A stretch of DNA of 64,000 bases from Escherichia coli. Lineage in GTDB: Bacteria > Pseudomonadota > Gammaproteobacteria > Enterobacterales > Enterobacteriaceae. Both the position numbers and the translations under genes were made by a program. Each line of letters opens with the position of its first letter. The stretch's first letter is position 1. Below, piece after piece: positions 3,194 through 25,478 of the stretch. The stretch lies in assembly GCF_041248615.1 (NCBI RefSeq), contig NZ_CP158426.1; one strand, written 5' to 3'. The notes beneath the pieces were generated by a model. It was not told where the DNA came from and made no database searches. It saw only the letters and a list, made by a program, of their open reading frames with translations.

Positions 3194-3269
3194 GTTGGAT
3201 CCTTACCGGTAAATCGTGCCGGTTAAAAGCGGCGTTAGGTTGGGGATTCTTAAGTTCCTTAAACCGGGT

Positions 3270-4783: not shown

Positions 4784-5448
4784 TAAATCGGGAACAGAGG
4801 ATGGTTAAACAGCCGCGTCAGCCAGCCTGCGGCGTTGGCGTCGCTTAACGCGCCGCGTCCGGCATAGGAGATACGGGCGTCGGCGATCCGCTGGGAGGAA
4901 ACCGAGTTGTCGTTCTGAATATCGTCGGCGCGTACCAGGCCGCTTAAGCGGATGTACTCATCGCCCTGGTTGAGGGTCAGCCATTTTTCGCCGCGAATTT
5001 CCAGGATGCCGTTGGGCTGCACCGCATGGACGGAAACGGTGATCTCCCCGCGCAGGCTGTTCTGCTGCTGGGAAGTGGCGCTGCCGTCAAAGTCGCGGTT
5101 GGCATCGATGGAGCCGGAAAGCTTATCTTTGGTGTGACCAAAAATGGTCGGTGCGCCGATGTCGACGGTGTTGTTTTTACCGAAGTTGGTTTTCGCCTGT
5201 TTGCTCGACTGGGTGGATTCTTCGAGGATCACCGTCAGGATATCGCCCACGCGGTAAGCCCGCCGATCGGCGGTGAGCGACCAGTTGTAGCCGGTTTCAA
5301 ACACGCCCCCGGCACGCCCGTCTGCCGGAGGCGGTGCTTCGGTTTTCGGTGGCGCAAAGTATGCGTCGTCTTTTTTGACCAGAATGGCCTGCGATTCACA
5401 CCCGCTAAGCAGGGGAAGCAGCGCCACCAGCCAGAGATAATTTTTCAC
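4783..5448 (-). CDS. lfgH: Flagellar L-ring lipoprotein FlgH
   Basis: Lipobox LLSGC; start moved to GTG at 5448 ([17 protein letters not shown]); the ORF-track N-terminal extension runs into a REP repeat. Confidence 0.85.
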
Positions 5449-9572: not shown

Positions 9573-9908
9573 TTATTTCCCTTCAATGGCCTCTCTGATG
9601 CCGCTGATTTGCAGATTCAGAAAGGTCAGACTGCTTTGATAATCCATACTATTTTGTGAAAACCGCGCCTGTTCGCTGTTTAGTTCCACGGTGTTGCCAT
9701 CTTCCGACGGCTGCATCGGCACGCGGTACTGGACATCCACCGCCGCGTTATTTGCCCGTTGCATCTCCCTGGCAAAATCAATATCTTTAGCCTTGAAATT
9801 TGGCGTATCGACGTTCGCCAGATTCGCAGTCAGTAGCTCGGTCCTCTCAAGACGTAACTTCACTGCCTGCGGATGCACTCCCAATGCCTGTTGAAAACTG
9901 ATCCCCAT
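9573..9908 (-). CDS. lfgB: Flagellar rod protein FlgB
   Basis: FlgB motif LLTANLANVDTPNFKAKDIDF; start moved to ATG at 9908 because the ORF-track start 9938 lies upstream of the transcription start implied by the sigma-54 promoter. Confidence 0.85.
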   Translation of the reverse strand: MGISFQQALGVHPQAVKLRLERTELLTANLANVDTPNFKAKDIDFAREMQRANNAAVDVQYRVPMQPSEDGNTVELNSEQARFSQNSMDYQSSLTFLNLQISGIREAIEGK

Positions 9909-9944: not shown

Positions 9945-9960
9945 AGCAATCGCCGTGCCA
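9945..9960 (-). promoter_or_regulatory. sigma-54 (-24/-12) promoter for the lfgB operon
   Basis: Minus strand reads TGGCACGGCGATTGCT, a full match to TGGCACG-N4-TTGCW. Confidence 0.6.
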
Positions 9961-9989: not shown

Positions 9990-10727
9990 ATGAGTTTTCA
10001 ATTTTGCAGGCGGAAGTTGTTCTTCCTCCTGGTGCTGGCCTTACCGGGCTACGCCGCCGTCCACCCCGTGCAACACAGCGCGCGGGAACAAGTCAACGCC
10101 CAGGTGCTGAATGCCGCGAGCCAGGAAATTGAATCGATGGCGCAGCAACGGCAGTGGCATGACTATCGCTACACCTTTAAGGTCTACATTCCCTCGCAGA
10201 TTGCGACCGCCGCCCCCTGTGCGACAACACCCGGCGTTACGCTCACTTCGCCTGCGGACATCGCCCTCAACCGGATGAACTTCACCGTCAGTTGCCCGCA
10301 AAGCTGGCAGATGAACGTGGCGGTGCGCCCGGATGTACTGGTGCCCGTGGTGATGACAAAGTCACTGGTTGCCCGCGATACGCCGCTCACGGCGAATGAT
10401 GTGGAGTTGAAGCCCTACAACTTCAGCGCCCAGCGGCGGGATGTGTTGATGGAGCTCGATGACGCAATTGGTTTAAGCAGTAAGCACGCGTTGCAACCGG
10501 GCAGGCCCATCACCAAAGAAGAGCTGGTTTCGCCAGTGCTGGTCGAACGCGATCAGCCGGTGATGATTGTTTACCAGAGCGCGGGGATCACCGCCTCGAT
10601 GCCCGGCGTGGCGCTGAAAAATGGCCGCAAAGGCGAGATGGTGAAAGTACGTAACGCAAGCAGCCAGCGGGTCATCAGCGCGATGGTGGCAGAAAGCGGC
10701 GTGGTGACGACGGTAAGCGCGGAGTAA
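9990..10727 (+). CDS. lfgA: Flagellar P-ring assembly chaperone FlgA-like
   Basis: 245 aa, signal peptide, divergent from flgB as in flagellar loci; moderate family resemblance. Confidence 0.75.
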   Translation: MSFQFCRRKLFFLLVLALPGYAAVHPVQHSAREQVNAQVLNAASQEIESMAQQRQWHDYRYTFKVYIPSQIATAAPCATTPGVTLTSPADIALNRMNFTVSCPQSWQMNVAVRPDVLVPVVMTKSLVARDTPLTANDVELKPYNFSAQRRDVLMELDDAIGLSSKHALQPGRPITKEELVSPVLVERDQPVMIVYQSAGITASMPGVALKNGRKGEMVKVRNASSQRVISAMVAESGVVTTVSAE

Positions 10728-10914
10728 TTTGCTGTAATACCGCGTAGCATATGTATGACTAGCTCCCAATATTCTGACTTTCTGACAAATTTCATTGTGT
10801 ATTTTGGATAATTATTGAGCACTCAATCACTACTGTTTAAATATCCAGATGATAACTATTTCATCTGGGTCAAATGAGTGATATTGTATCACCAATAAGA
10901 CCTACGGGGGTGCT

Positions 10915-12339
10915 ATGTCTGAATTTGAATTGCTCGTGAAAGATCTTCTTTTAAAATCAGAAGAAGACGAGAAAAAGCGACAAGAAAAAGATCGAGAATT
11001 AATTTCAAAGGTTCTTGAAATCTATGATCAAAAATATGTTGCAGAACTCCTACGAAAAGTAGGAAAAAATGAATGGAGCAGAGAAACACTTAACCGTTGG
11101 ATAAATGGTAAGTGTAACCCTAAACAATTAACTTCTGCTGAGGAAACTTTACTTCGAAAGATGCTCCCAGAACCTCCCGAACATCATCCTAACTATACAT
11201 TTCGTTTTATTGATTTATTCGCAGGGATTGGTGGTATTCGTAAAGGCTTCGAAAATATTGGTGGGCAGTGTGTTTTTACTAGCGAATGGAATAAAGAAGC
11301 GGTAAGAACCTACAAAGCTAATTGGTTTAATGATGAACTAAATCATAAATTTAATCTTGATATACGAGAAGTCACTTTAAGTGATAGAGATGATGTTTCC
11401 GAAATGGAAGCCTATAATCATATAGACAAAAATATTCCAGATCATGATGTCCTTCTGGCCGGTTTTCCATGTCAACCCTTTAGTCTGGCTGGGGTAAGCA
11501 AGAAAAATTCTCTGGGGCGTGCACATGGTTTTGAATGTGAGGCACAAGGAACACTATTTTTTGATGTCGCTCGAATTATTAAATCAAAAAAACCAGCTAT
11601 TTTTGTGCTTGAGAATGTGAAGAACCTTAAAAGTCATGATAAAGGTAAGACTTTTAAAGTCATCATGGAAACACTCAATGAATTAGGGTATGAAGTCGCC
11701 GATGCTGGTGTGACTGGCTCAGATGATCCTAAAATTATAGATGGAAAACATTTTTTACCCCAACATCGTGAGCGTATAGTGTTGGTAGGATTTCGTAGGG
11801 ATCTAAATATTCACAAGGATTTCACGTTACGAAATATTAACCGCTTTTACCCTCAAAACAGGCCAACATTTGGTGAATTATTAGATCATGATGTTGACGA
11901 CAAATATATTTTGACTCCAAGGTTATGGGAATATCTTTACAATTATGCAAAAAAACATGCAGCAAAAGGAAATGGATTTGGTTTTGGTTTAGTGGATCCT
12001 AAAAATCCAGATAGTATCGCACGAACGCTGTCTGCTCGTTACCATAAAGATGGCTCTGAAATACTGATCGATCGTGGCTGGGATAAGGCTGTCGGTGAAA
12101 TCGATTTTAGTAATCCAGCGAATCAAGAGAATCGACCAAGAAGACTGACACCTCATGAATGTGCCAGGTTAATGGGTTTTGAAAAACCAGGGGGAAGACC
12201 TTTTAGAATACCTGTATCAGATACTCAAGCTTATAGACAATTTGGGAACTCAGTTGTTGTGCCAGTATTTGAAGCTGTAGCAAGATTACTAGAACCGTAC
12301 ATACAAAAGGCTGTCAGCATGCAAGTTATTAACGATTAA
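10915..12339 (+). CDS. DNA cytosine-5 methyltransferase, Dcm/M.EcoRII family (predicted CCWGG specificity)
   Basis: 474 aa; motif I FAGIGG, motif IV PCQPFS, ENV, QFGNSV; near-collinear with M.EcoRII/Dcm as recalled; gene is AT-rich unlike flanks. Confidence 0.9.
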
Positions 12340-12362
12340 TAATAATTAACTTTCACTATTGT

Positions 12363-12386
12363 GAGGCCTTTTTTATTAAAGGCCTC
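12363..12386. terminator. Hairpin between convergent methyltransferase and endonuclease genes (candidate bidirectional terminator)
   Basis: gaggccttt-tttatt-aaaggcctc perfect 9-bp stem in AT-rich context. Confidence 0.4.
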
Positions 12387-12426
12387 TAAATATATAATCA
12401 TAAGTTATTATAAGTATACTTTTATA

Positions 12427-13632
12427 TTATACAAAATCTTCATACAGCGTTATTAACTGTGTGATAAAACCCTCTAACGTTAATAATCCCTCCCTGATTT
12501 CCTCCGGATATTTTTTATGAAGAGGGGAAGGTACAACCAAGGTGACACCTTCAGCTCTCATTTCGTTAAATTGAGCAACTGAGACACCCTCTTGTAAGGT
12601 AAACAAATATATTTTGTTGATTTTATTTGCTTCATTGAGTGCCTGACGCCACCGATCCTTACATGTTGTTTTTACAGCAAGCATACGGAGTTTTTCTCTT
12701 GGAAAGTGATCATCATGGTAAGCTGCCGCTGATGGAAAAAGAAAATCGGGTTTCTTTTTTCCTTCAGTAATACATTGAGTAGCAAAATGATGCAGTCCAT
12801 GCTCAATAAAAATTTGCTCAAGATGTAGCTCCAGTGATTTCCCGGCTCGAGATTTTCTTCGATTACTAACAGAGTTAGCCATAGCTATAAAATCATCTAC
12901 AGAACCAAACCCTTGACGGATGATGTCCAGTACGTGAATTTCTTCAACCATTAGAAAGAGATCATATTCAATACGGCGGCGTTCTAAAAGTTGGTCATCT
13001 GGACTGGTTACGCCTGTTGGGTAATAACCCGCAGCATATTGAATAATCTCTAAGCCAGAAGGAAAGCTATGTTTCCAGCTTTCCGGAATAACATATTCCT
13101 TTTGAGAGATTTTTGGCCTTGATGCGAGTACACCAAGTATTTCACTGGCAGGCCCAAACATTAAAGTTCCAGGAATGATCTCCCCAATAGCTGATTCCAG
13201 TACATCCTCTTCTTCTGGGCTAACACAAACCCATACATCAACACTTTTGCTGTCTCTCCCTGGCTCATGTTCAAACGCAAGCACAGACAAAGCACCTGTA
13301 TTTTCCGGATCCTGTAGGGGACTGCCAGCCCCCCACCGAGTGATGCGTTTTTCATTTCTTGTTTGCCCGAAATACTTATTATTGTAGTAAATAGCGCGAA
13401 CCTCACTGTCTACACATTCATGAGAGGAATAAGTTGCGCGCAATAAAACCGAAGGATTTTTTTCTGACGTATGATCTATAGATGGGAAAAGTTCAGCGAC
13501 GATACCAGAAGGGATATATACCCCCACTTGATGCCCTCCTGTTGCACCAGTGTCGTTTGCTGAAAGACGTTTAATATAGAGATAGTTGTTACCACCGACC
13601 TTATCAAGCAGCCAATCTTGTAATCCTGACAT
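12427..13632 (-). CDS. Type II restriction endonuclease, EcoRII-like
   Basis: 401 aa; N-terminal YIKRLSANDTGATGGHQVGVYIPSGI and overall layout match EcoRII as recalled; convergent with the MTase; AT-rich. Confidence 0.75.
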   Translation of the reverse strand: MSGLQDWLLDKVGGNNYLYIKRLSANDTGATGGHQVGVYIPSGIVAELFPSIDHTSEKNPSVLLRATYSSHECVDSEVRAIYYNNKYFGQTRNEKRITRWGAGSPLQDPENTGALSVLAFEHEPGRDSKSVDVWVCVSPEEEDVLESAIGEIIPGTLMFGPASEILGVLASRPKISQKEYVIPESWKHSFPSGLEIIQYAAGYYPTGVTSPDDQLLERRRIEYDLFLMVEEIHVLDIIRQGFGSVDDFIAMANSVSNRRKSRAGKSLELHLEQIFIEHGLHHFATQCITEGKKKPDFLFPSAAAYHDDHFPREKLRMLAVKTTCKDRWRQALNEANKINKIYLFTLQEGVSVAQFNEMRAEGVTLVVPSPLHKKYPEEIREGLLTLEGFITQLITLYEDFV

Positions 13633-13804
13633 AAGACATCCTTATTTTTGCATAGTATCCGATTCAGATTTTTCCACATATCCATCAGAACGACCAGAAC
13701 CAACATATCTGAACAAAAAGTAAATATGCGATAACGATTAAAGTTTTGCCGCCTGTTAACCGCTTTACCGGAGTAACCCACCTAAATACCGAGACGAGGT
13801 TGCG

Positions 13805-14080
13805 ATGAAAATCACCCCGACTATGCCAGGCAATCGCCCGACAGTCACAACGGCAGGCTCCAGCCAGCCGCGCAAAGGCACGGCGACCACCACGACGCTA
13901 AGCGCCGACGACATTACCCAGGCGGGATTGCAGTCTGCCCAGCAAACACTGAACGACCAGCAAGAGAGCGATATCGACAGCGATAAAGTGGCGCAAATGC
14001 AGGCGATGCTGGCCTCCGGCAGCCTGCAAGTGGACACCGAACAGTTAGCCAGCGACATGCTGAGTTTTTTCCAGAACTAA
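13805..14080 (+). CDS. lfgM: Anti-sigma-28 factor FlgM-like
   Basis: 91 aa; C-terminal pattern (IDSDKVAQMQAMLASGSLQVDTEQLASDML) typical of FlgM. Confidence 0.8.
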   Translation: MKITPTMPGNRPTVTTAGSSQPRKGTATTTTLSADDITQAGLQSAQQTLNDQQESDIDSDKVAQMQAMLASGSLQVDTEQLASDMLSFFQN

Positions 14081-14092
14081 GAGGCCGATGAA

Positions 14093-14521
14093 GTGAGTAT
14101 CCGGTTACAACAGGTGAAGGCGTTGTTGCAGGGAATTCGTGACGATGACGCGCTGTATGATTCCCTGCGCGAACTTCTCCAGCGTCAGCGGATCTGCATG
14201 ATTCGCCGCGCCAGCGAAGAGCTGCTGGCGGTAAACGAGGAGATAACCCATCACTATGAGCAGTTGCATGGGCATAGCCATCAGCGGCACAGCCTGCTGA
14301 AAATGCTTAATGTCAGTGTAAATCGTGACGGTCTGGCGCAGGTTTTTGCCTGGCTTCCGGCGGTACAAAAAGCGGCAGCACAACAGTTGTGGCAACGCCT
14401 TGAGCAAAAAGCGGAACGCTGCAAAGCCTACAACGACAAAAACGGCGAGCTGTTGATTCGCCAGTATGAATTTATTCAGTCTTTTTTAGGTAGCGAAGCA
14501 GATTTTCTCTATCAGGAATAA
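14093..14521 (+). CDS. lfgN: Flagellar export chaperone FlgN-like
   Basis: 142 aa helical protein directly downstream of flgM; weak but consistent family resemblance. Confidence 0.65.
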   Translation: MSIRLQQVKALLQGIRDDDALYDSLRELLQRQRICMIRRASEELLAVNEEITHHYEQLHGHSHQRHSLLKMLNVSVNRDGLAQVFAWLPAVQKAAAQQLWQRLEQKAERCKAYNDKNGELLIRQYEFIQSFLGSEADFLYQE

Positions 14522-14597
14522 CGCGAATACCTTCCCCATAGCGGAAATGGATTTTCCGCCTGATTCACAATCCTTTGTTTTTGATTATAAAAATTCC

Positions 14598-14613
14598 CGG
14601 CACGCTTATTGCA
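14598..14613 (+). promoter_or_regulatory. sigma-54 (-24/-12) promoter upstream of hypothetical/glycosyltransferase operon
   Basis: cGGCACGcttaTTGCA, 15/16 match to TGGCACG-N4-TTGCA, 35 nt upstream of ATG at 14648. Confidence 0.55.
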
Positions 14614-14647
14614 CATTCCGCAAAGTAATAAAGACTGGAAGCCACCT

Positions 14648-15580
14648 ATGAGTTTTATTGAATGTTACGAACCGGAATACGTGCGCAATTTTATGACGCA
14701 ATATCCCGATTCGCCTTTGTACATCCGCAAGGTGTGGAAAAACGAGATTCGCCAGAGCCTGATGCTGACAGAGCCAGAAAGCTGCGAAGCGGTGCTCAAC
14801 GATGCCAGGGCCTTTGATTTACAGCTCACCTACCGCCCGGCGGAAGATAATGCCGCAGAACTCTCCGCGCGCGATGCGATAGTAAACCAGGTCATTTTGA
14901 GCACCCTTACGCTCCCCGATTTACCCCCGGAGCTTTCACTGTACGCCGTCGGGATTTTGCTCTCCCGCGCCAGCAAAATGCCGGGCAGAGACGGAGATAT
15001 TCTTGCCCGCTTGACGACGCTGCCACAGGCGCTGGCCGATCATGCACAAAAAGGCACGCTACAGGCACAGTTCGCCCAGCTGCCGCCCGTGCCACAGCTG
15101 GCGCGCCAGTTGATGACGCTGCTCGGCAGTTGTGCGTTTGACTGGTCGATTCTGCCGGAAAGCCCGCGCAAAACTTCGCTGCCGTTGCAGATGCCTTTGC
15201 TGGCGCTACATGACGCCAACAGCGAAGCCCTGTTACAACAGCAGCTTCAGGCACAGTGGCAAACCACCTGGCAACAGCATTTTGCCACCGCGCCCTGGAT
15301 GATGCGTAACTGGCTGATTTACCGCGTTTACCATGAGGTGATTGGGCAGGCAGACGGAGCAGATTATTGCCCGCTGGTGTGCGATTTTTATCTTATCCGC
15401 ACGTTAATCAGTTTATGGACGCTGGATGGTTCTCCGCTGCGACAGGAGGATATTTTCGCCCTCTTTGCCATGTTTGAACGCTGGCGAGCCAGTGAAAATG
15501 CTGTGCTGATTCGCCAACAAATTCAGGCTGAACGTTCCGCAGATCCCCTGCTTTATGCGTTTTCACTGCTGTCTTGCTAA
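14648..15580 (+). CDS. Hypothetical protein (Flag-2 associated, family not recognised)
   Basis: Long ORF with ATG at 14648 downstream of the sigma-54 promoter; ORF-track start 14609 is a TTG inside the promoter. Confidence 0.6.
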   Translation: MSFIECYEPEYVRNFMTQYPDSPLYIRKVWKNEIRQSLMLTEPESCEAVLNDARAFDLQLTYRPAEDNAAELSARDAIVNQVILSTLTLPDLPPELSLYAVGILLSRASKMPGRDGDILARLTTLPQALADHAQKGTLQAQFAQLPPVPQLARQLMTLLGSCAFDWSILPESPRKTSLPLQMPLLALHDANSEALLQQQLQAQWQTTWQQHFATAPWMMRNWLIYRVYHEVIGQADGADYCPLVCDFYLIRTLISLWTLDGSPLRQEDIFALFAMFERWRASENAVLIRQQIQAERSADPLLYAFSLLSC

Positions 15581-15626
15581 CGCTTTTTGGCCGGTTTTCC
15601 CGGCCTTATCGACTTCGTAAACTATC

Positions 15627-18092
15627 ATGCAAACCCTCATCAAAACACTCGCCACCCAGCGCGAAAAACCGTTCGTCAGCGTCGTCACGCCCACATGGAA
15701 CCGTAGCGCATTCCTGCCGTACCTGCTCTATATGTACCGCTATCAGGACTACCCGGCAGACCGCCGCGAACTGGTCATCCTCGACGACTCGCCGCAAAGC
15801 CATCAGCACATCATCGACCGTTTGACCGATGGCACGCCGGAAGCCTTTAACATCCGCTACATCCATCATCAGGAAAGACTGCCGCTGGGCAAAAAACGCA
15901 ACATGCTCAATGAACTGGCAGTGGGGGAATATATCCTCTGCATGGATGACGACGACTACTACCCGGCAGATAAAATCTCTTACACCATCGCCATAATGCA
16001 AAAACACCGGGCGCTCATCTCCGGTTCCGACCAGATCCCCATCTGGTACAGCCACATCAATCGCATCTTCCAAAGCCGCAGCTTTGGCTCACATAACATC
16101 CTCAACGGCACCTTTTGCTATCACCGTAACTACCTGAAAAAGCACCGTTACGACGATGATTGTAATTTAGGCGAAGAGAAAAGTTTCACCAACAATTTCA
16201 GCGTTAACCCGCTACAACTGCCCGGCGAGCGCACGATTTTGTGTATCTCGCATAGCCACAACACCTTTGATAAAGACTTTATTCTCGGGGCCAGCACGCC
16301 AGTAAACGCGGCGCTTACGGATATCGTCCGCGATCCGCTGCTCCGCAACGCCTATCTGAGTCTGCATAACGCCACTCATCACCAGGCGATCAACCATCAG
16401 GCGATCGATCAGGTCGTACTGATCAATCTGGATAAACGCCCGGATCGCTTACAACAGATCCGTGAAGAACTGGCATTGCTGCATATTCCACCTGAGAAGA
16501 TCACCCGCCTTGCCGCCAGTGAAGATCAAAACGGCCAACGGGGACGACGCCAGTCGCACTTGCAGGCGCTGCGCCTGGCGCAACAGCACGGCTGGCAAAA
16601 CTACCTGCTGCTGGAAGATGACGCGGTTATTCTCAAGCAGGAAAAACATATTCAGGTACTGAACACGCTGCTGGCGAGCCTGGCGAAAATTCCCTGGCAG
16701 GTGATGATCCTTGGCGGCGAAATTTCGCAGGGAACGATGCTAAAAAGTTTGCCGGGGCTGGTGCACGCGCGGGACTGCCGCAAGGTGTGCGCTTATCTGG
16801 TGAACAGCCGCTACTACCCGCAACTGGCGCAGCAGATGAGCAACGATGAGCACTCGCTGGAAGAGTGCTGGCAGCCGCTGCTACACGCCGACAAATGGCT
16901 GGCCTGTTACCCGAGCCTTTGTTACCAGCGACCGGGCTTTAGTGATATCGAGAAAAAAACGACTGACAACATTGCTCACTATTTCAATAAGTTACCCGTA
17001 GCCACCAAGCCATCTACATTACCCATCGCCGATACCATCGGCTTTTTTATGGAAACCTCATTCCACTACGCGCTCTACCGCCCAATCATCACCGCTCTGC
17101 AGGCGCAGGGGCAGAGCTGTACGCTGGTGATCAATGACCGCGTATTTAAACCATTTCTGGATGAAATGCTGGCGACGCTAAAAAGCATTGACGATCCGCA
17201 GCTCAAAGGTATGCGCTTATCTGAAATGCAGGCGCACGGTCAGCGGGTAAAATGCCTGGTCAGCCCCTATCACACGCCCGCGCTCAGTGGCCTGGCAGCG
17301 GTGAACGTCCGCGCCATGTACGGCTTAGCCAAAGAGGCGTGGAACCACGCCGACTGGAATCGTTTTTACCAACGCATTTTGTGTTATAGCCACTACAGCC
17401 AGCAGACACTGGCGCATTTCGGTAGCGCAAAAGTGGTCGGCAATCCACGTTTCGACGCCTGGCATAACGGCACGTTTGCCCGCACTCTGCCGGAAAATAT
17501 TCAACCCGATTCCCGTAAACCTACGGTGCTCTACGCCCCCACGTTTGGCGCATTAAGCTCCCTGCCCCACTGGGCAGAAAAATTGGGGCGCTTAAGCGGT
17601 GATGTGAACCTGATTTGCAAACTGCACCACGGCACCTGCTCGCGCCCGGAAGAAGCTGCATCGCTGGCACTGGCGCGCAGGCATTTAAAACAGCGCACCG
17701 ACTCCGCCCGCCACACGCTGGCGCTACTGGCAAAGGCCGATTACGTGCTGACCGATAACAGCGGCTTTATTTTCGATGCTATCCACGTTGATAAGCGGGT
17801 GATCCTGCTCGACTTTCCGGGCATGAGTGAATTACTCGAAGGCGAGAAAAGCTACTCCACGCCGGAGAGCGCCGATCAGCAAATCCGCGAAATATTGCCG
17901 GTGGCTCATGATATGGCAGAGTTGCGTTACTTGTTGTCAGAGGCGTTTGACTGGGGGGCGGTGCAGGCGCGGCTTACGAAGATTCGTCATCACTATTGCG
18001 ATGCGTTTATGGATGGCAAGGCGGGAGAACGGGCGGCGATGGTGATTGTGGAGGCGCTGGCGGACAAGGAATCGTCAGGGATATGTCGATAA
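15627..18092 (+). CDS. Multidomain glycosyltransferase: N-terminal GT2-like, central GT25-like, C-terminal CDP-glycerol glycerophosphotransferase (TagB/TagF)-like
   Basis: 821 aa; GT2-type start (VSVVTPTWNRSAF..DD..DDDD), GT25-like VLINLDKRPDRL, TagF-like VLYAPTFG and LHHGT motifs. Confidence 0.75.
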   Translation: MQTLIKTLATQREKPFVSVVTPTWNRSAFLPYLLYMYRYQDYPADRRELVILDDSPQSHQHIIDRLTDGTPEAFNIRYIHHQERLPLGKKRNMLNELAVGEYILCMDDDDYYPADKISYTIAIMQKHRALISGSDQIPIWYSHINRIFQSRSFGSHNILNGTFCYHRNYLKKHRYDDDCNLGEEKSFTNNFSVNPLQLPGERTILCISHSHNTFDKDFILGASTPVNAALTDIVRDPLLRNAYLSLHNATHHQAINHQAIDQVVLINLDKRPDRLQQIREELALLHIPPEKITRLAASEDQNGQRGRRQSHLQALRLAQQHGWQNYLLLEDDAVILKQEKHIQVLNTLLASLAKIPWQVMILGGEISQGTMLKSLPGLVHARDCRKVCAYLVNSRYYPQLAQQMSNDEHSLEECWQPLLHADKWLACYPSLCYQRPGFSDIEKKTTDNIAHYFNKLPVATKPSTLPIADTIGFFMETSFHYALYRPIITALQAQGQSCTLVINDRVFKPFLDEMLATLKSIDDPQLKGMRLSEMQAHGQRVKCLVSPYHTPALSGLAAVNVRAMYGLAKEAWNHADWNRFYQRILCYSHYSQQTLAHFGSAKVVGNPRFDAWHNGTFARTLPENIQPDSRKPTVLYAPTFGALSSLPHWAEKLGRLSGDVNLICKLHHGTCSRPEEAASLALARRHLKQRTDSARHTLALLAKADYVLTDNSGFIFDAIHVDKRVILLDFPGMSELLEGEKSYSTPESADQQIREILPVAHDMAELRYLLSEAFDWGAVQARLTKIRHHYCDAFMDGKAGERAAMVIVEALADKESSGICR

Positions 18093-18184
18093 AATTCGAT
18101 TTTTTAAACATGTCGTTGGAATACGTTTATGCCATCGACATGTTTTAGGGATATGTCGAAAAAACGCGATTATTTAAACATATT
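18078..18184. repeat. Imperfect direct repeat pair (~38 bp) with internal hairpin at a convergent gene junction
   Basis: gggatatgtcga(t/a)aaaa..cgatt.tttaaacat twice; inverted arms aaacatgtcg / cgacatgttt. Confidence 0.3.
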
Positions 18185-18236: not shown

Positions 18237-18641
18237 TCAGTAGGTGGCTGATTTACCCCTAATCACCTCAATAATCCCCGTCGTCGATACCGACGGCGTA
18301 CGGGGAAAATAGACCACCTCACAGACACACGAGAAATCGTCAAACTTCCCTGCCCAGTCATCACCCATCACTAAAATATCCGCACCGTACCCCCGCAAAT
18401 ACTCCGCTTTCTGCTCCAGCGATTCCTCCAGAAATACGCCATCCACGCACGCCAGCCCGGCGATAATCGCCATGCGGTCATCCTGATGGTAAACCGGTGC
18501 CCTGCCCTTTTTGGCGATGTTCAGGGCGTCGGACGATACGCCGACCAGCAGCCGCTCGCCCAGCTTGCGGGCGCGTTGTAAAAGGCGCAGATGACCGACG
18601 TGAAACACATCGAAGGTGCCGAAGGTGATGACCGTTTTCAT
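18237..18641 (-). CDS. Glycerol-3-phosphate cytidylyltransferase (TagD-like)
   Basis: MKTVITFGTFDVFHVGHLRLL (HxGH), DDWAG, EVVYFPRTPSVSTT, near-collinear with TagD as recalled; start set to ATG 18641 (GGAG upstream, abuts fliJ stop). Confidence 0.8.
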   Translation of the reverse strand: MKTVITFGTFDVFHVGHLRLLQRARKLGERLLVGVSSDALNIAKKGRAPVYHQDDRMAIIAGLACVDGVFLEESLEQKAEYLRGYGADILVMGDDWAGKFDDFSCVCEVVYFPRTPSVSTTGIIEVIRGKSATY

Positions 18642-19080: not shown

Positions 19081-20418
19081 TTACTGTTCTGCCTTTTTGG
19101 CACCAGGAAAGAGAATTTGCAGGCGGCTTTGCACCAGTTCCAGGGAGGCGGGTTCGCGCATCTCCTGGCGCAAAAACCGCTCGATAGCCGGGAACATTTT
19201 CACCGCTTTGTCGACGCTGGCGTCGGCACCTGCCACGTAGCCGCCGAGTGGGATCAGCGGTTTGATCTCCATATAGGCGACGTAGTTTTGCTTTAACGCG
19301 CGGGCAGATTGCTGATGTTCCAGGCTGGTCACCTGGTTCATGCAGCGGCTGATCGACTGGCCGATATCAATGGCCGGATAGAGCCCCGCTTCCGCCAGTT
19401 TGCGGGTTAATACGATATGCCCGTCCAGCACCGCACGGGCGCAGTCGACAATCGGATCTTGCTGGTCGTCGCCTTCCGCCAGCACGGTGTAGATAGCGGT
19501 CATCGATCCCGCGCTTTCGCTGTTGCCTGCGCTCTCGACCAGTTTGGGGATCATGCCGAATGCCGATGGCGGATAGCCTTTGGTGGCGGGTGGTTCGCCG
19601 AGCGAGAGGGCGATTTCCCGCTGCGCCATCGCGTAGCGGGTCAGGGAATCCACCAGCAGTAAAACGTGATGCCCGCGGTCGCGAAACCAGGCGGCGATGG
19701 AGTGGCACAGTTCGGTGGCTTTCAGGCGCATCAGCGGCGATTCATCGGCGGGGGCGACAACGACGATAGACTTCGCCAGCCCGTCCGCGCCCAGCGAGTG
19801 GTCGATAAACTCTTTCACTTCGCGCCCGCGTTCGCCAATCAGCCCAACCACCACGATATCGGCTTTGGTCTGGCGGGTGATCATCCCCAGCAGCACGCTT
19901 TTCCCGACGCCGCTGCCCGCCATCAGCCCGACGCGCTGGCCTTTGCCGATGGTCAGTAGGCCGTTGATCGCTTTCACGCCCACGTCCAGCGGTTCGTCCA
20001 CTGAACGGCGGGTTAAGGGATTGACCGACGGCGGCAGCGGCGGCAGAAGGTCGTTGCCGTTCAGGCGGCCTTTGCCATCCAGCGGTTCGCCGAGGCCATT
20101 CACCACGCGGCCTAACCAGCTTTCGCCAATCAGGATGTCGTGGGCTTTTTCTTCCGGGAAGACGCGCGCCCCCGCCATCAGGCCGACCGGCTGTTTAAAG
20201 GGCATTAAGTAGGTGATGTCGCGGTTAAAGCCCACGGCCTGCGCGTCGATAAGCGTGTGATTGGCGCTTTCGATGCGGCACAGCTGCCCGGTCATTAGCG
20301 GGCAGCCGACACTCTCCAGCAGGATGCCGTTTAGGCGCACCAGCCGCCCGGCGACGCGGGCCAGCGGGATCGACTCCAGCGAGCGCAGCGCGTTATCGAA
20401 AGCGGAAAAATCACTCAC
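19081..20418 (-). CDS. lfiI: Flagellum-specific ATPase FliI
   Basis: 445 aa; Walker A GSGVGKS, F1/FliI-type ATPase core. Confidence 0.95.
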   Translation of the reverse strand: MSDFSAFDNALRSLESIPLARVAGRLVRLNGILLESVGCPLMTGQLCRIESANHTLIDAQAVGFNRDITYLMPFKQPVGLMAGARVFPEEKAHDILIGESWLGRVVNGLGEPLDGKGRLNGNDLLPPLPPSVNPLTRRSVDEPLDVGVKAINGLLTIGKGQRVGLMAGSGVGKSVLLGMITRQTKADIVVVGLIGERGREVKEFIDHSLGADGLAKSIVVVAPADESPLMRLKATELCHSIAAWFRDRGHHVLLLVDSLTRYAMAQREIALSLGEPPATKGYPPSAFGMIPKLVESAGNSESAGSMTAIYTVLAEGDDQQDPIVDCARAVLDGHIVLTRKLAEAGLYPAIDIGQSISRCMNQVTSLEHQQSARALKQNYVAYMEIKPLIPLGGYVAGADASVDKAVKMFPAIERFLRQEMREPASLELVQSRLQILFPGAKKAEQ

Positions 20419-21121
20419 CCTGAGACTCCGGCGTGAGTGTTTCTTTCAGTGCGGTCATGCATTGTTCCAGGCGATGCTCGCAGCCGATATCCAGTTCAGA
20501 TTTGTCGGTGATCACCCGGCATTCGCCCGGCGGCAGATCCGGCGTAGGCGTCAGCCCCCATTCACTGACCTTTTCCGGTACCGCGTCGCGCAGGCGGTTA
20601 AACTCTTCTGTACTCAGCATCACTCGCAGGGTCTCCGGCATCGCCGGGAAGGCCGCCAGCGCCTCTTCCACCAGCGCCAGTAACTGCGTCGGTTGCAGCG
20701 CCAGTTCGCAGCGGATCACCTGGCGGGTGACTTTTTCCACCAGTTGCAGCAAATCTTCCCGCTGTTTACGTTCGATATGGGCGAGGAAATCGTTCACTTT
20801 ACCGGTGATGGCTTCCAGCGGCTGCGCCGCCTCAACAAACTGTTTGCGCCCTTCCTGCTGCCCGGCGAGGCTGCCTTCGGTGTAACCCTGGCGTCGCCCC
20901 TCGGCAAAACCTTGCTGATGACCTTCGCTAAAGCCCTGTTCCTGGCCTTCGGTCATTCCCTGAGCAAACCCTTTTTGCAGCCCTTCCTGAAAACCGTCCA
21001 TCAGCTGGCGCTGGTAATCGGCGGCGCTAATGCTGGCGGTGAGCGGTTCTCCGGTCACCGCACGCTGGCGCGGCGGAAAACGGTGCAGGCGATAGCGCCC
21101 GCGCAGTGTTTCAATGGTCAT
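20411..21121 (-). CDS. lfiH: Flagellar assembly protein FliH
   Basis: 236 aa; Gln/Glu-rich repeat region and position between fliG and fliI. Confidence 0.8.
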   Translation of the reverse strand: MTIETLRGRYRLHRFPPRQRAVTGEPLTASISAADYQRQLMDGFQEGLQKGFAQGMTEGQEQGFSEGHQQGFAEGRRQGYTEGSLAGQQEGRKQFVEAAQPLEAITGKVNDFLAHIERKQREDLLQLVEKVTRQVIRCELALQPTQLLALVEEALAAFPAMPETLRVMLSTEEFNRLRDAVPEKVSEWGLTPTPDLPPGECRVITDKSELDIGCEHRLEQCMTALKETLTPESQGE

Positions 21122-24119: not shown

Positions 24120-25106
24120 TCAGGAGAAAACTTCGATACCTTGCTTGCGCATGGAGGCCAGTCGATAGCGCAGTGCGCGCGGGGTAATGCCTAACAGGTC
24201 GGCAATTTTGCTGCGGTTGCCCTGATATTTACGCATCAGGTCGGCGATATATTGATACTGGGCGCTACGTCCGGCCTGGCCTAAATCGCTGGTTTCCGCA
24301 ACAGATACGGAGGGCTGAACAGGCCATTGCAGTTCACTGTGATCGGCAACGTCTATTTCCGGCAGGCCTAAGGCATCCGGGAAAATCACGCCGTCGCGAT
24401 TTAAAATCATTCCACGCTGAATGGCGTTCTCCAGCTGGCGCACGTTGCCGGGCCAGCGGTAATTGAGCAGCGCCCGGCGAGTAGATTCTGAAAGGGTGAT
24501 ATTTTTCACCAGCACTGTGGAGTATTTTTTAATAAATGACTCTGCCAGCGGGATAATATCGTTCAGGCGTTCACGCAGCGGCGGCATGGTAATAGGAATA
24601 ACCGCCAGACGATAATAGAGATCTTCACGAAAACGCCCGGCGGCGACTTCCTGCTCAAGGTTTTTATTGGTGCAGGCAATCAGGCGAAAATTGAGTTTAA
24701 TTTGTCGGTTACTGCCTAATCGCTCAACCTGCTGTTCCTGCAATACGCGTAATATTTTGGCCTGTAGCGCCAGCGGCATATCGCCAATTTCATCGAGCAA
24801 TAAGGTGCCGTTATTCGCCAGTTCCATTTTTCCTGGCACGCTGGCAATTGCGCCGGTAAATGCGCCTTTGTCGTAGCCAAATAAGGTAGATTCCAGCATG
24901 TTTTCCGGGATCGCCGCGCAGTTCACGCCGATATAGGGCGCGTTATCATTTTCACCAAAGGCTACGGTGTGAATATATTTCGCCACGCATTCTTTGCCCG
25001 CGCCGGTTTCGCCCTGAATGAGCACCGGCACGTTAAATGCGGCGACACGCTTTGCCAGAGTAAAAGCGTTAATGCTGGAAGCGGCAGTTGCAATAAGTTC
25101 AGACAT
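24120..25106 (-). CDS. lafK: sigma-54-dependent transcriptional activator (LafK-like), no N-terminal receiver domain
   Basis: 328 aa; Walker A GETGAGKE, GAFTGA sigma-54 contact motif, C-terminal HTH. Confidence 0.9.
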   Translation of the reverse strand: MSELIATAASSINAFTLAKRVAAFNVPVLIQGETGAGKECVAKYIHTVAFGENDNAPYIGVNCAAIPENMLESTLFGYDKGAFTGAIASVPGKMELANNGTLLLDEIGDMPLALQAKILRVLQEQQVERLGSNRQIKLNFRLIACTNKNLEQEVAAGRFREDLYYRLAVIPITMPPLRERLNDIIPLAESFIKKYSTVLVKNITLSESTRRALLNYRWPGNVRQLENAIQRGMILNRDGVIFPDALGLPEIDVADHSELQWPVQPSVSVAETSDLGQAGRSAQYQYIADLMRKYQGNRSKIADLLGITPRALRYRLASMRKQGIEVFS

Positions 25107-25261
25107 AGGGTGAACGATATAAGTAGCGACAGAAAACAGGATGTTCTGAAGCGTATCACCGGCGGGATTAACAAGTTCGAATTAAACGATAATAAAAATA
25201 TTATTTGATGGTAAACAATTAGTTAGATATTAATACTGTTAATTTGGACATCTGTGATGCC

Positions 25262-25303
25262 CCCTCACCCTAACCCTCTCCCCGGATGGGGCGAGGGGAC
25301 AGA
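25262..25303. repeat. GC-rich imperfect palindromic intergenic repeat (copy A)
   Basis: cccctcaccctaaccctctccccggatggggcgaggggacag; reverse complement shares ctgtcccctcgcccc..ggggagaggg with the copy at 31735. Confidence 0.35.
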
Positions 25304-25478
25304 CCGCAGACTGATTGGCGAAAATCACTCCCATTAAGCAATTAATCGATTAATTATTTTTTCATCCTATTAATAATTTGCCCCTTTCACTCCCCCTCTA
25401 TTTAATACCTCACCTTGTGTCACTGCCTGATTTGCGTGCACAAAATCGCCCATACCATTACAGCAGAGAAAGTAAGCC

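Follow-up and report, generated by a model that had tools for sequence, protein, structure and literature searches.

Which promoter drives the two genes that occupy variable region 1 (VR1) of the Flag-2 (lateral-type) flagellar locus in Escherichia coli, and with which part of the flagellar regulon are they expressed? We approached this question in a 64,000-nt stretch of DNA, referred to below as the window, which covers most of the Flag-2 locus of E. coli NRZ14408 (100% identical). The 310-aa product of the first gene is the LafV protein described for Flag-2 variable region 1 by De Maayer et al. (2020, PMC6993521). The VR1 of that study contains the same genes (LafV, GT2-1) in the same place between lfgN and lfiJ. 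That paper does not analyse promoters and uses the word 'promoter' 0 times (PMC6993521); what the present work contributes is the regulatory wiring. Our literature search, whose coverage did not extend to the original Flag-2 description, returned no LafK binding site, no data on LafK in Flag-2 and no report of the promoter discussed here; a search on 'lafV' gave nothing relevant, the Vibrio 'lafV' being an unrelated gene name. The features on which the analysis rests are collected in Table 1.

Table 1. Genes and regulatory elements of the Flag-2 locus considered in this work (positions refer to the window)
Feature	Position	Strand	Remarks
lfgB	9573-9908	-	
sigma-54 site TGGCACGGCGATTGCT, perfect, before lfgB	9945-9960	-	internal reference promoter, same class
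lfgA	9990-10727	+	
palindrome GGAAGTTGTTCTTCC	10012-10026	.	within first codons of lfgA; centre 60 nt upstream of lfgB -24 GG
Dcm/EcoRII restriction-modification cassette	10915-13632		dcm 10915-12339 (+), EcoRII-like 12427-13632 (-)
sigma-28-like promoter TAAAGTTT-N12-ACCGCTTT	13739-13766	+	upstream of lfgM
lfgM	13805-14080	+	
lfgN	14093-14521	+	
perfect palindrome GGAAATGGATTTTCC	14543-14557	.	candidate LafK enhancer (UAS); centre 49 nt upstream of -24 GG
IHF-like site AAACAAAGGATTG	14568-14580	-	1 mismatch to WATCARNNNNTTR
sigma-54 -24/-12 promoter element CGGCACGCTTATTGCA	14598-14613	+	GG 14599-14600, GC 14611-14612
Shine-Dalgarno GGAAG	14637-14641	+	6 nt 5' of lafV ATG
lafV ATG	14648-14650	+	start annotated in RefSeq, identical E. 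coli record
lafV	14648-15580	+	310 aa; FliB_C domain PF27117; first gene of proposed operon
GT2 glycosyltransferase	15627-18092	+	821 aa, N-terminal GT2 domain; 46 nt after lafV
long hairpin, arms AAACATGTCG / CGACATGTTT plus flanking pairs, then TTTT	18095-18160	+	convergent gap after GT2
TagD-like cytidylyltransferase	18237-18641	-	TIGR01518, 115 bits, below cut-off
lafK	24120-25106	-	328-aa sigma-54 activator: AAA+ domain and HTH_8, without receiver domain

LafV homologues carry the name lysine-N-methylase, and 'hypothetical protein' is also used in RefSeq for near-identical proteins. In comparison with the Salmonella lysine-N-methylase FliB, LafV matches the C-terminal part. It scores 45.8 bits against the FliB model NF038110, below the cut-off of 85, and aligns with positions 105-364 of 373, so that the N-terminal third (the first ~100 profile positions) is missing. 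We therefore regard LafV as a putative FliB-like flagellin lysine methylase homologue. The first-pass annotation had spoken of glycan genes at this place, a description that suits the second gene, which encodes a GT2 glycosyltransferase, and not the first.

The two genes are probably co-transcribed, and a terminator scan of the plus strand between them found no terminator-like site. The gap itself measures 46 nt here (15581-15626) and in DP033, and in other E. coli lineages it reaches ~160-180 nt. The lafV-GT2 transcript could plausibly end at the long hairpin behind GT2, which has a folding energy of -22.2 kcal/mol (z = -4.15; none of 200 shuffles was equally stable) and was missed by the simple terminator scan, probably owing to its over-long loop. 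The same gap between GT2 and the cytidylyltransferase gene contains ~35-nt direct repeats (AGGGATATGTCGA...TTAAACAT, at 18078-18112 and 18147-18181) that flank a 10-bp inverted repeat, the first of them overlapping the GT2 stop codon. The cytidylyltransferase gene is convergent to GT2 and closes the minus-strand run lafK-lfiE-F-G-H-I-J; because it starts 3 nt after the end of lfiJ, it is assigned to the operon lafK-lfiE..J and not to lafV-GT2. In related genera, genes for CDP-glycerol glycerophosphotransferases (PF04464) are found in the cytidylyltransferase region. Together with the TagD-like cytidylyltransferase encoded here, they hint at a flagellin modification containing glycerol-phosphate.

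The 16-nt motif upstream of lafV is intergenic, lies on the plus strand and points at lafV, with 35 nt between its last base and the ATG. Compared with TGGCACG-N4-TTGCW, it has exactly the GG-N10-GC spacing and agrees at 15 of 16 positions, or 11 of the 12 specified bases. The sole deviation, C for T at the first base, may weaken sigma-54 binding. Thus the near-consensus motif proposed by the first-pass annotation was confirmed in its coordinates, its spacing, its single deviating base and its distance from the start codon. The position of the motif predicts a transcription start near 14624. Only two sites with at most one mismatch are present in the 64-kb window, this one and the perfect site before lfgB, and this count is not significant alone, since shuffled windows contain a mean of 1.12 such sites and two or more in 26% of shuffles. 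The location of the sites is more informative. The chance of finding such a site on the right strand in the 126-nt lafV intergenic region is ~0.001, and in the whole Flag-2 locus all three sites with at most one mismatch are intergenic, correctly oriented and located 31-36 nt from a start codon. Their owners are lfgB, lafB (fliD) and lafV, the lafB site having been seen in the complete locus.

Each of these three sites is accompanied by a second element, a palindrome of the form GGAAR-N5-YTTCC. The 44.5-kb locus contains three copies, all of them upstream of a sigma-54 site (lfgB, lafB and lafV), at an expectation of ~0.25 per 64 kb. To our knowledge, it matches no known activator site of NtrC, NifA, PspF, FleQ or FlbD. 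Before lafV the palindrome extends to GCGGAAA-N5-TTTCCGC (14541-14559), with an additional CTTCC half-site at 14531-14535, and the 9-mer TTCCGCCTG at its promoter-proximal end is common to the three promoters of the locus. The distance from the palindrome centre to the -24 GG is 49 nt for lafV, 49 nt for lafB and 60 nt for lfgB, which gives two spacing classes one helical turn apart. The same classes recur in related loci, where lafV promoters have a spacing of 49-50 nt (59-60 nt in Leminorella and one Citrobacter) and lfgB promoters a spacing of 60-62 nt, including those of Paramixta, Erwinia oleae, Cedecea and the Enterobacter cloacae complex. Nearly all lafV and lfgB promoters examined have a palindrome free of mismatches (one locus has one), the N5 centre varying freely, whereas sigma-54-like matches elsewhere in the related loci are accompanied by at least two, and mostly at least three, palindrome mismatches. 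Overall, the pairing of palindrome and sigma-54 site is observed in more than 20 species and in Vibrio campbellii. In this strain, moreover, an ungapped alignment of the lafV promoter with the lafB promoter has 56 of 85 positions identical (66%).

A third element lies between the other two. The centre of the IHF-like site before lafV is 25 nt upstream of the -24 GG, and the match to WATCARNNNNTTR is perfect at lafB in this strain and at lafV in Citrobacter. Of 57 promoters that combine palindrome and sigma-54 motif, 53 have a WATCARNNNNTTR-like site with zero or one mismatch, and its position is constant; these 57 instances come from phylogenetically linked loci and are therefore not independent, and AT-rich DNA easily gives such matches. 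Columns A52, A53 and T59 are invariant in the nine-sequence alignment described below.

To analyse conservation we took a single genome from each species that gave a LafV alignment and so obtained 24 loci. Of these, 19 (Escherichia spp., Pseudocitrobacter, many Citrobacter species, Phytobacter and Leminorella) have the motif GGCAY-N6-TTGC before lafV, at 34-96 nt from the ATG and within flanking intergenic DNA that is largely different. The -24 GGCA and the -12 TTGC are invariant before lafV in these 19 loci of other species and in five other E. coli. Within E. coli, the lafV intergenic region is carried by ~1277 of 5426 complete genomes, and the 16-mer is identical in all five genomes sampled across the identity range. 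In an alignment of nine diverse genera and species the mean column identity is 55% and 19 of 111 columns are invariant, namely those of the -24 GGCA, the -12 TTGC, the palindrome arms and three bases between. That all eight core positions (GGCA and TTGC) fall among the 19 invariant columns has a probability of ~2e-7 under random placement. E. coli strain 74-2 provides a natural disruption: an IS1 element (748-1445 of its locus) has integrated upstream of the palindrome, where lfgN ends, and the palindrome and sigma-54 module before lafV is kept despite its separation from lfgN.

Other Enterobacterales connect lafV differently. In two Enterobacter spp., ENT03 and kpr-6, lafV abuts lfgN and has no promoter of its own, and in Cedecea, the E. 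cloacae complex, Erwinia oleae and a metagenomic locus the genes GT2-FliB_C(-cytidylyltransferase) directly follow lfiJ. In these differently wired genomes the palindrome and sigma-54 module is kept only at lfgB, where the sigma-54 site is present in all loci examined, including those of Erwiniaceae and Cedecea. Since lafV is placed behind lfgN or within an lfiJ-GT2 arrangement in these lineages, its sigma-54 control is not obligatory, and the module before it is a lineage-specific solution.

The natural candidate for a protein acting through the palindrome is LafK, in which the AAA+ and DNA-binding domains are recognized (Sigma54_activat 2e-64, HTH_8 8e-9). The enterobacterial and the Vibrio loci alike encode it as their sole sigma-54 activator. 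For comparison we used chromosome 2 of V. campbellii (filed among plasmids), which has a true lateral flagellar locus. The LafK proteins of E. coli and V. campbellii are 48% identical and share the recognition helix RALRY(R/K)LA. In V. campbellii, the fliD_L (lafB) promoter AGGCACACATCTTGCG is preceded by the palindrome GGAAAAGCCGCTTCC at 62 nt, and the flgB_L promoter TGGCATGCATCTTGTT by GGAAGCGAGGCTTCC at 50 nt. The presence of the palindrome at these orthologous promoters, next to a LafK of 48% identity, indicates that it travels with LafK across orders, and this is the main argument for considering it a LafK enhancer. A second perfect palindrome of V. campbellii (18836 of its locus) falls within a coding sequence, has no sigma-54 site in its vicinity and was attributed to chance. 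A candidate locus of Aeromonas caviae was dropped as polar-type, and a search for distant LafK loci via protein representatives was not useful, giving mostly metagenome sequences or polar-flagellum regulators.

Experimental data from Vibrio parahaemolyticus bear on this comparison in both directions. RpoN sites are listed there for flgB2 and lafB, the same operons as those with the V. campbellii pairs, and an EMSA in the same work counts against the sigma-54/LafK reading, as the lafB promoter fragment was not shifted by RpoN (PMC9817140). The class-2 promoters flgB_L and fliD_L/lafB of V. parahaemolyticus share the regulator family and the sigma motif with Flag-2, and their V. campbellii orthologues have both the palindrome and the -24/-12 element. 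The E. coli locus differs from the Vibrio lateral system in that the lafV promoter serves VR1 cargo genes without a Vibrio counterpart, and the Flag-2 side is known from sequence. The region between lafK and the divergent lfiM contains at 25250-25310 a dispersed repeat rich in GC (CCCTCACCCTAACCCTCTCCCCGGATGGGGCGAGGGG), which E. coli genomes carry at a median of 14 places each and which we take to resemble the boxC type of element. A scan of the complete locus found neither a sigma-54 site nor a palindrome in this divergent region, in agreement with the reported LafK independence of the Vibrio fliM_L operon (PMC3930126). The V. campbellii LafK ORF (444 aa, 19635-20969 of its locus) has a ~120-aa receiver-like N-terminal domain that is absent from E. 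coli LafK. Because of this absence, the enterobacterial LafK may be constitutively active and controlled solely via its own expression.

Enhancer-dependent sigma-54 promoters with an IHF site between the UAS and the -24 element are known from nifH, glnHp2 and the PspF-activated pspA. The lafV promoter resembles these canonical examples in having a candidate activator palindrome ~75-85 nt upstream, an IHF-like site between and the GG-N10-GC core. As an activator without a regulatory domain, E. coli LafK is also similar to PspF (PMC3162934).

The neighbouring lfgMN genes look as if they belonged to a different promoter class from lafV-GT2. The sigma-28-like motif upstream of lfgM is a candidate for a separate class 3 promoter of lfgMN. 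Related motifs of the form TAAGTT(T)-N11-13-G(Y)CGCTTT also precede lafA (4839-4864 on the minus strand of the complete locus) and lfgK (~3230-3260 of the window), a similar motif is present before lfgM in Paramixta, Cedecea, Erwinia and the E. cloacae complex, and we propose this form as a candidate consensus of promoters recognized by LafS (lateral sigma-28). In the lafV intergenic region no sigma-28 motif was found, either of the TAAAGTTT-N11-GCCGATAA-like type or of the variant TAAGTTT...GYCGCTTT, the pattern scan of the locus returning lfgM and lafA only. Likewise, no sigma-70-like promoter was detected at 13500-15700 and no known RNA family at 14300-14800. The Dcm/EcoRII cassette sits between lfgA and lfgM (insert region 10728-13738), where the typical E. 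coli gap is 80 nt; its junction lies just 5' of the sigma-28-like lfgM motif, which stays intact. The cassette has been described in 21 Escherichia strains (De Maayer 2020, PMC6993521). Neither a terminator scan nor folding revealed an intrinsic terminator between lfgN and lafV, and for this reason lafV need not depend on the sigma-54 promoter, and read-through from lfgN may add to its expression. This limits the claim of the first-pass annotation that the downstream genes are separate from the flgMN transcript: the sigma-28-like promoter of lfgM speaks for separate control, and the missing terminator leaves room for read-through.

Taken together, we consider it probable that 14598-14613 is the core of an enhancer-dependent, LafK-activated sigma-54 promoter that drives lafV and most likely also GT2. 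According to the model suggested by the sequence elements, sigma-54 RNA polymerase would bind the -24 GG and the -12 GC as a closed complex, and a LafK oligomer would occupy GGAAA-N5-TTTCC, centred ~74 nt upstream of the predicted start, via its C-terminal HTH. A bend at the IHF-like site between the two elements would bring LafK to the polymerase, and ATP hydrolysis by LafK would open the complex for transcription from near 14624, making expression dependent on rpoN, a gene located outside the window, and on lafK. Transcripts from the sigma-28-like lfgM promoter may in addition run on into lafV. The assignment of the downstream genes to the sigma-54/LafK regulon, as put forward in the first-pass annotation, is thereby supported by the conservation of the promoter, by the palindrome shared at a fixed phase and by a LafK that has HTH_8. 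Given the conserved three-part region of palindrome, IHF-like site and sigma-54 promoter, LafK most likely switches on lafV-GT2.

Three other explanations have to be weighed against this model. The palindrome might serve something other than LafK: the sigma-54 promoter would be real, and the palindrome would form an RNA hairpin ending or stabilising the lfgMN transcript, or be the target of another protein, activation then coming from solution, as type Ic enhancer-binding proteins work without DNA binding (PMC3162934), or from a different enhancer-binding protein. Indeed, the lfgN stop is immediately followed by the palindrome, which is able to form a hairpin with a 7-bp stem (14541-14559), and the literature search gave no experimentally determined LafK site. 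In fact, we first took it for a terminator hairpin with compensatory changes, an interpretation that was rejected because the hairpin has no U tract, the region is no more stable than shuffled sequences (z = -0.65), the GGAAR and YTTCC arms are conserved in sequence and not covarying around a variable loop, and the element is also found upstream of lfgB and lafB. The copy before lfgB is embedded in the coding sequence of lfgA, and the one at lafB comes after a distinct GC-rich hairpin, which has a partial T-run and resembles the lafA terminator. The spacing classes one helical turn apart, as well as the retention of HTH_8 in the only sigma-54 activator common to the enterobacterial and Vibrio loci, also argue against this alternative, which we consider unlikely.

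Another possibility is that the motif is non-functional, a chance match or a relic, and that lafV-GT2 is expressed only as the tail of an lfgMN transcript from the sigma-28-like lfgM promoter. The number of near-consensus sites in the window, which is not above chance, the lack of a terminator after lfgN and the promoterless lafV genes of Enterobacter sp. ENT03 and kpr-6 would all fit. We nevertheless judge it very unlikely, as it leaves unexplained a core that is invariant across genera within divergent flanks, its fixed-phase pairing with a palindrome and an IHF-like site that are common to lfgB, lafB and Vibrio, and the persistence of the module in strain 74-2 beyond the IS1 that cuts it off from lfgN. 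Finally, the site could bind the sigma-54 holoenzyme and act mainly as a roadblock or attenuator of lfgN read-through rather than as a productive promoter. Closed complexes of this holoenzyme are stable, and intragenic or non-productive RpoN sites are common; ChIP-seq in Yersinia identified 103 inter- and intragenic RpoN sites, the main text of that paper containing nothing on Flag-2 (PMC7657599). A roadblock would hardly account for the full enhancer and IHF-like architecture of the productive promoters of the locus, or for the ideal distance to the Shine-Dalgarno sequence and ATG, and this role for the site seems extremely improbable to us.

The preferred model of a LafK-activated promoter has an evolutionary extension, to which we give about an even chance: that GGAAR-N5-YTTCC is an undescribed LafK enhancer used from Vibrio to Escherichia, and that the lafV promoter is a lafB-type module copied in front of the VR1 cargo genes, a process that may be called 'promoter capture'. 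If this is true, horizontally acquired flagellin-modification genes were re-wired into flagellar class 2 in the Escherichia-Citrobacter lineage, and in other genera these genes were joined to the lfiJ or lfgN operon instead.

The proposed wiring would place the flagellin-modification genes in the LafK/sigma-54 class 2, together with lfgB (hook-basal body) and lafB (fliD...sigma-28) and before the sigma-28-driven flagellin. This is an addition to the known regulon that leaves the general picture of sigma-54 flagellar regulation unchanged. It also provides an example of how cargo genes of a variable region may be wired into the host regulon differently in each lineage. Finally, the candidate LafK site and the three-part promoter signature could serve to delimit the LafK regulon wherever a genome encodes a lateral flagellar system.
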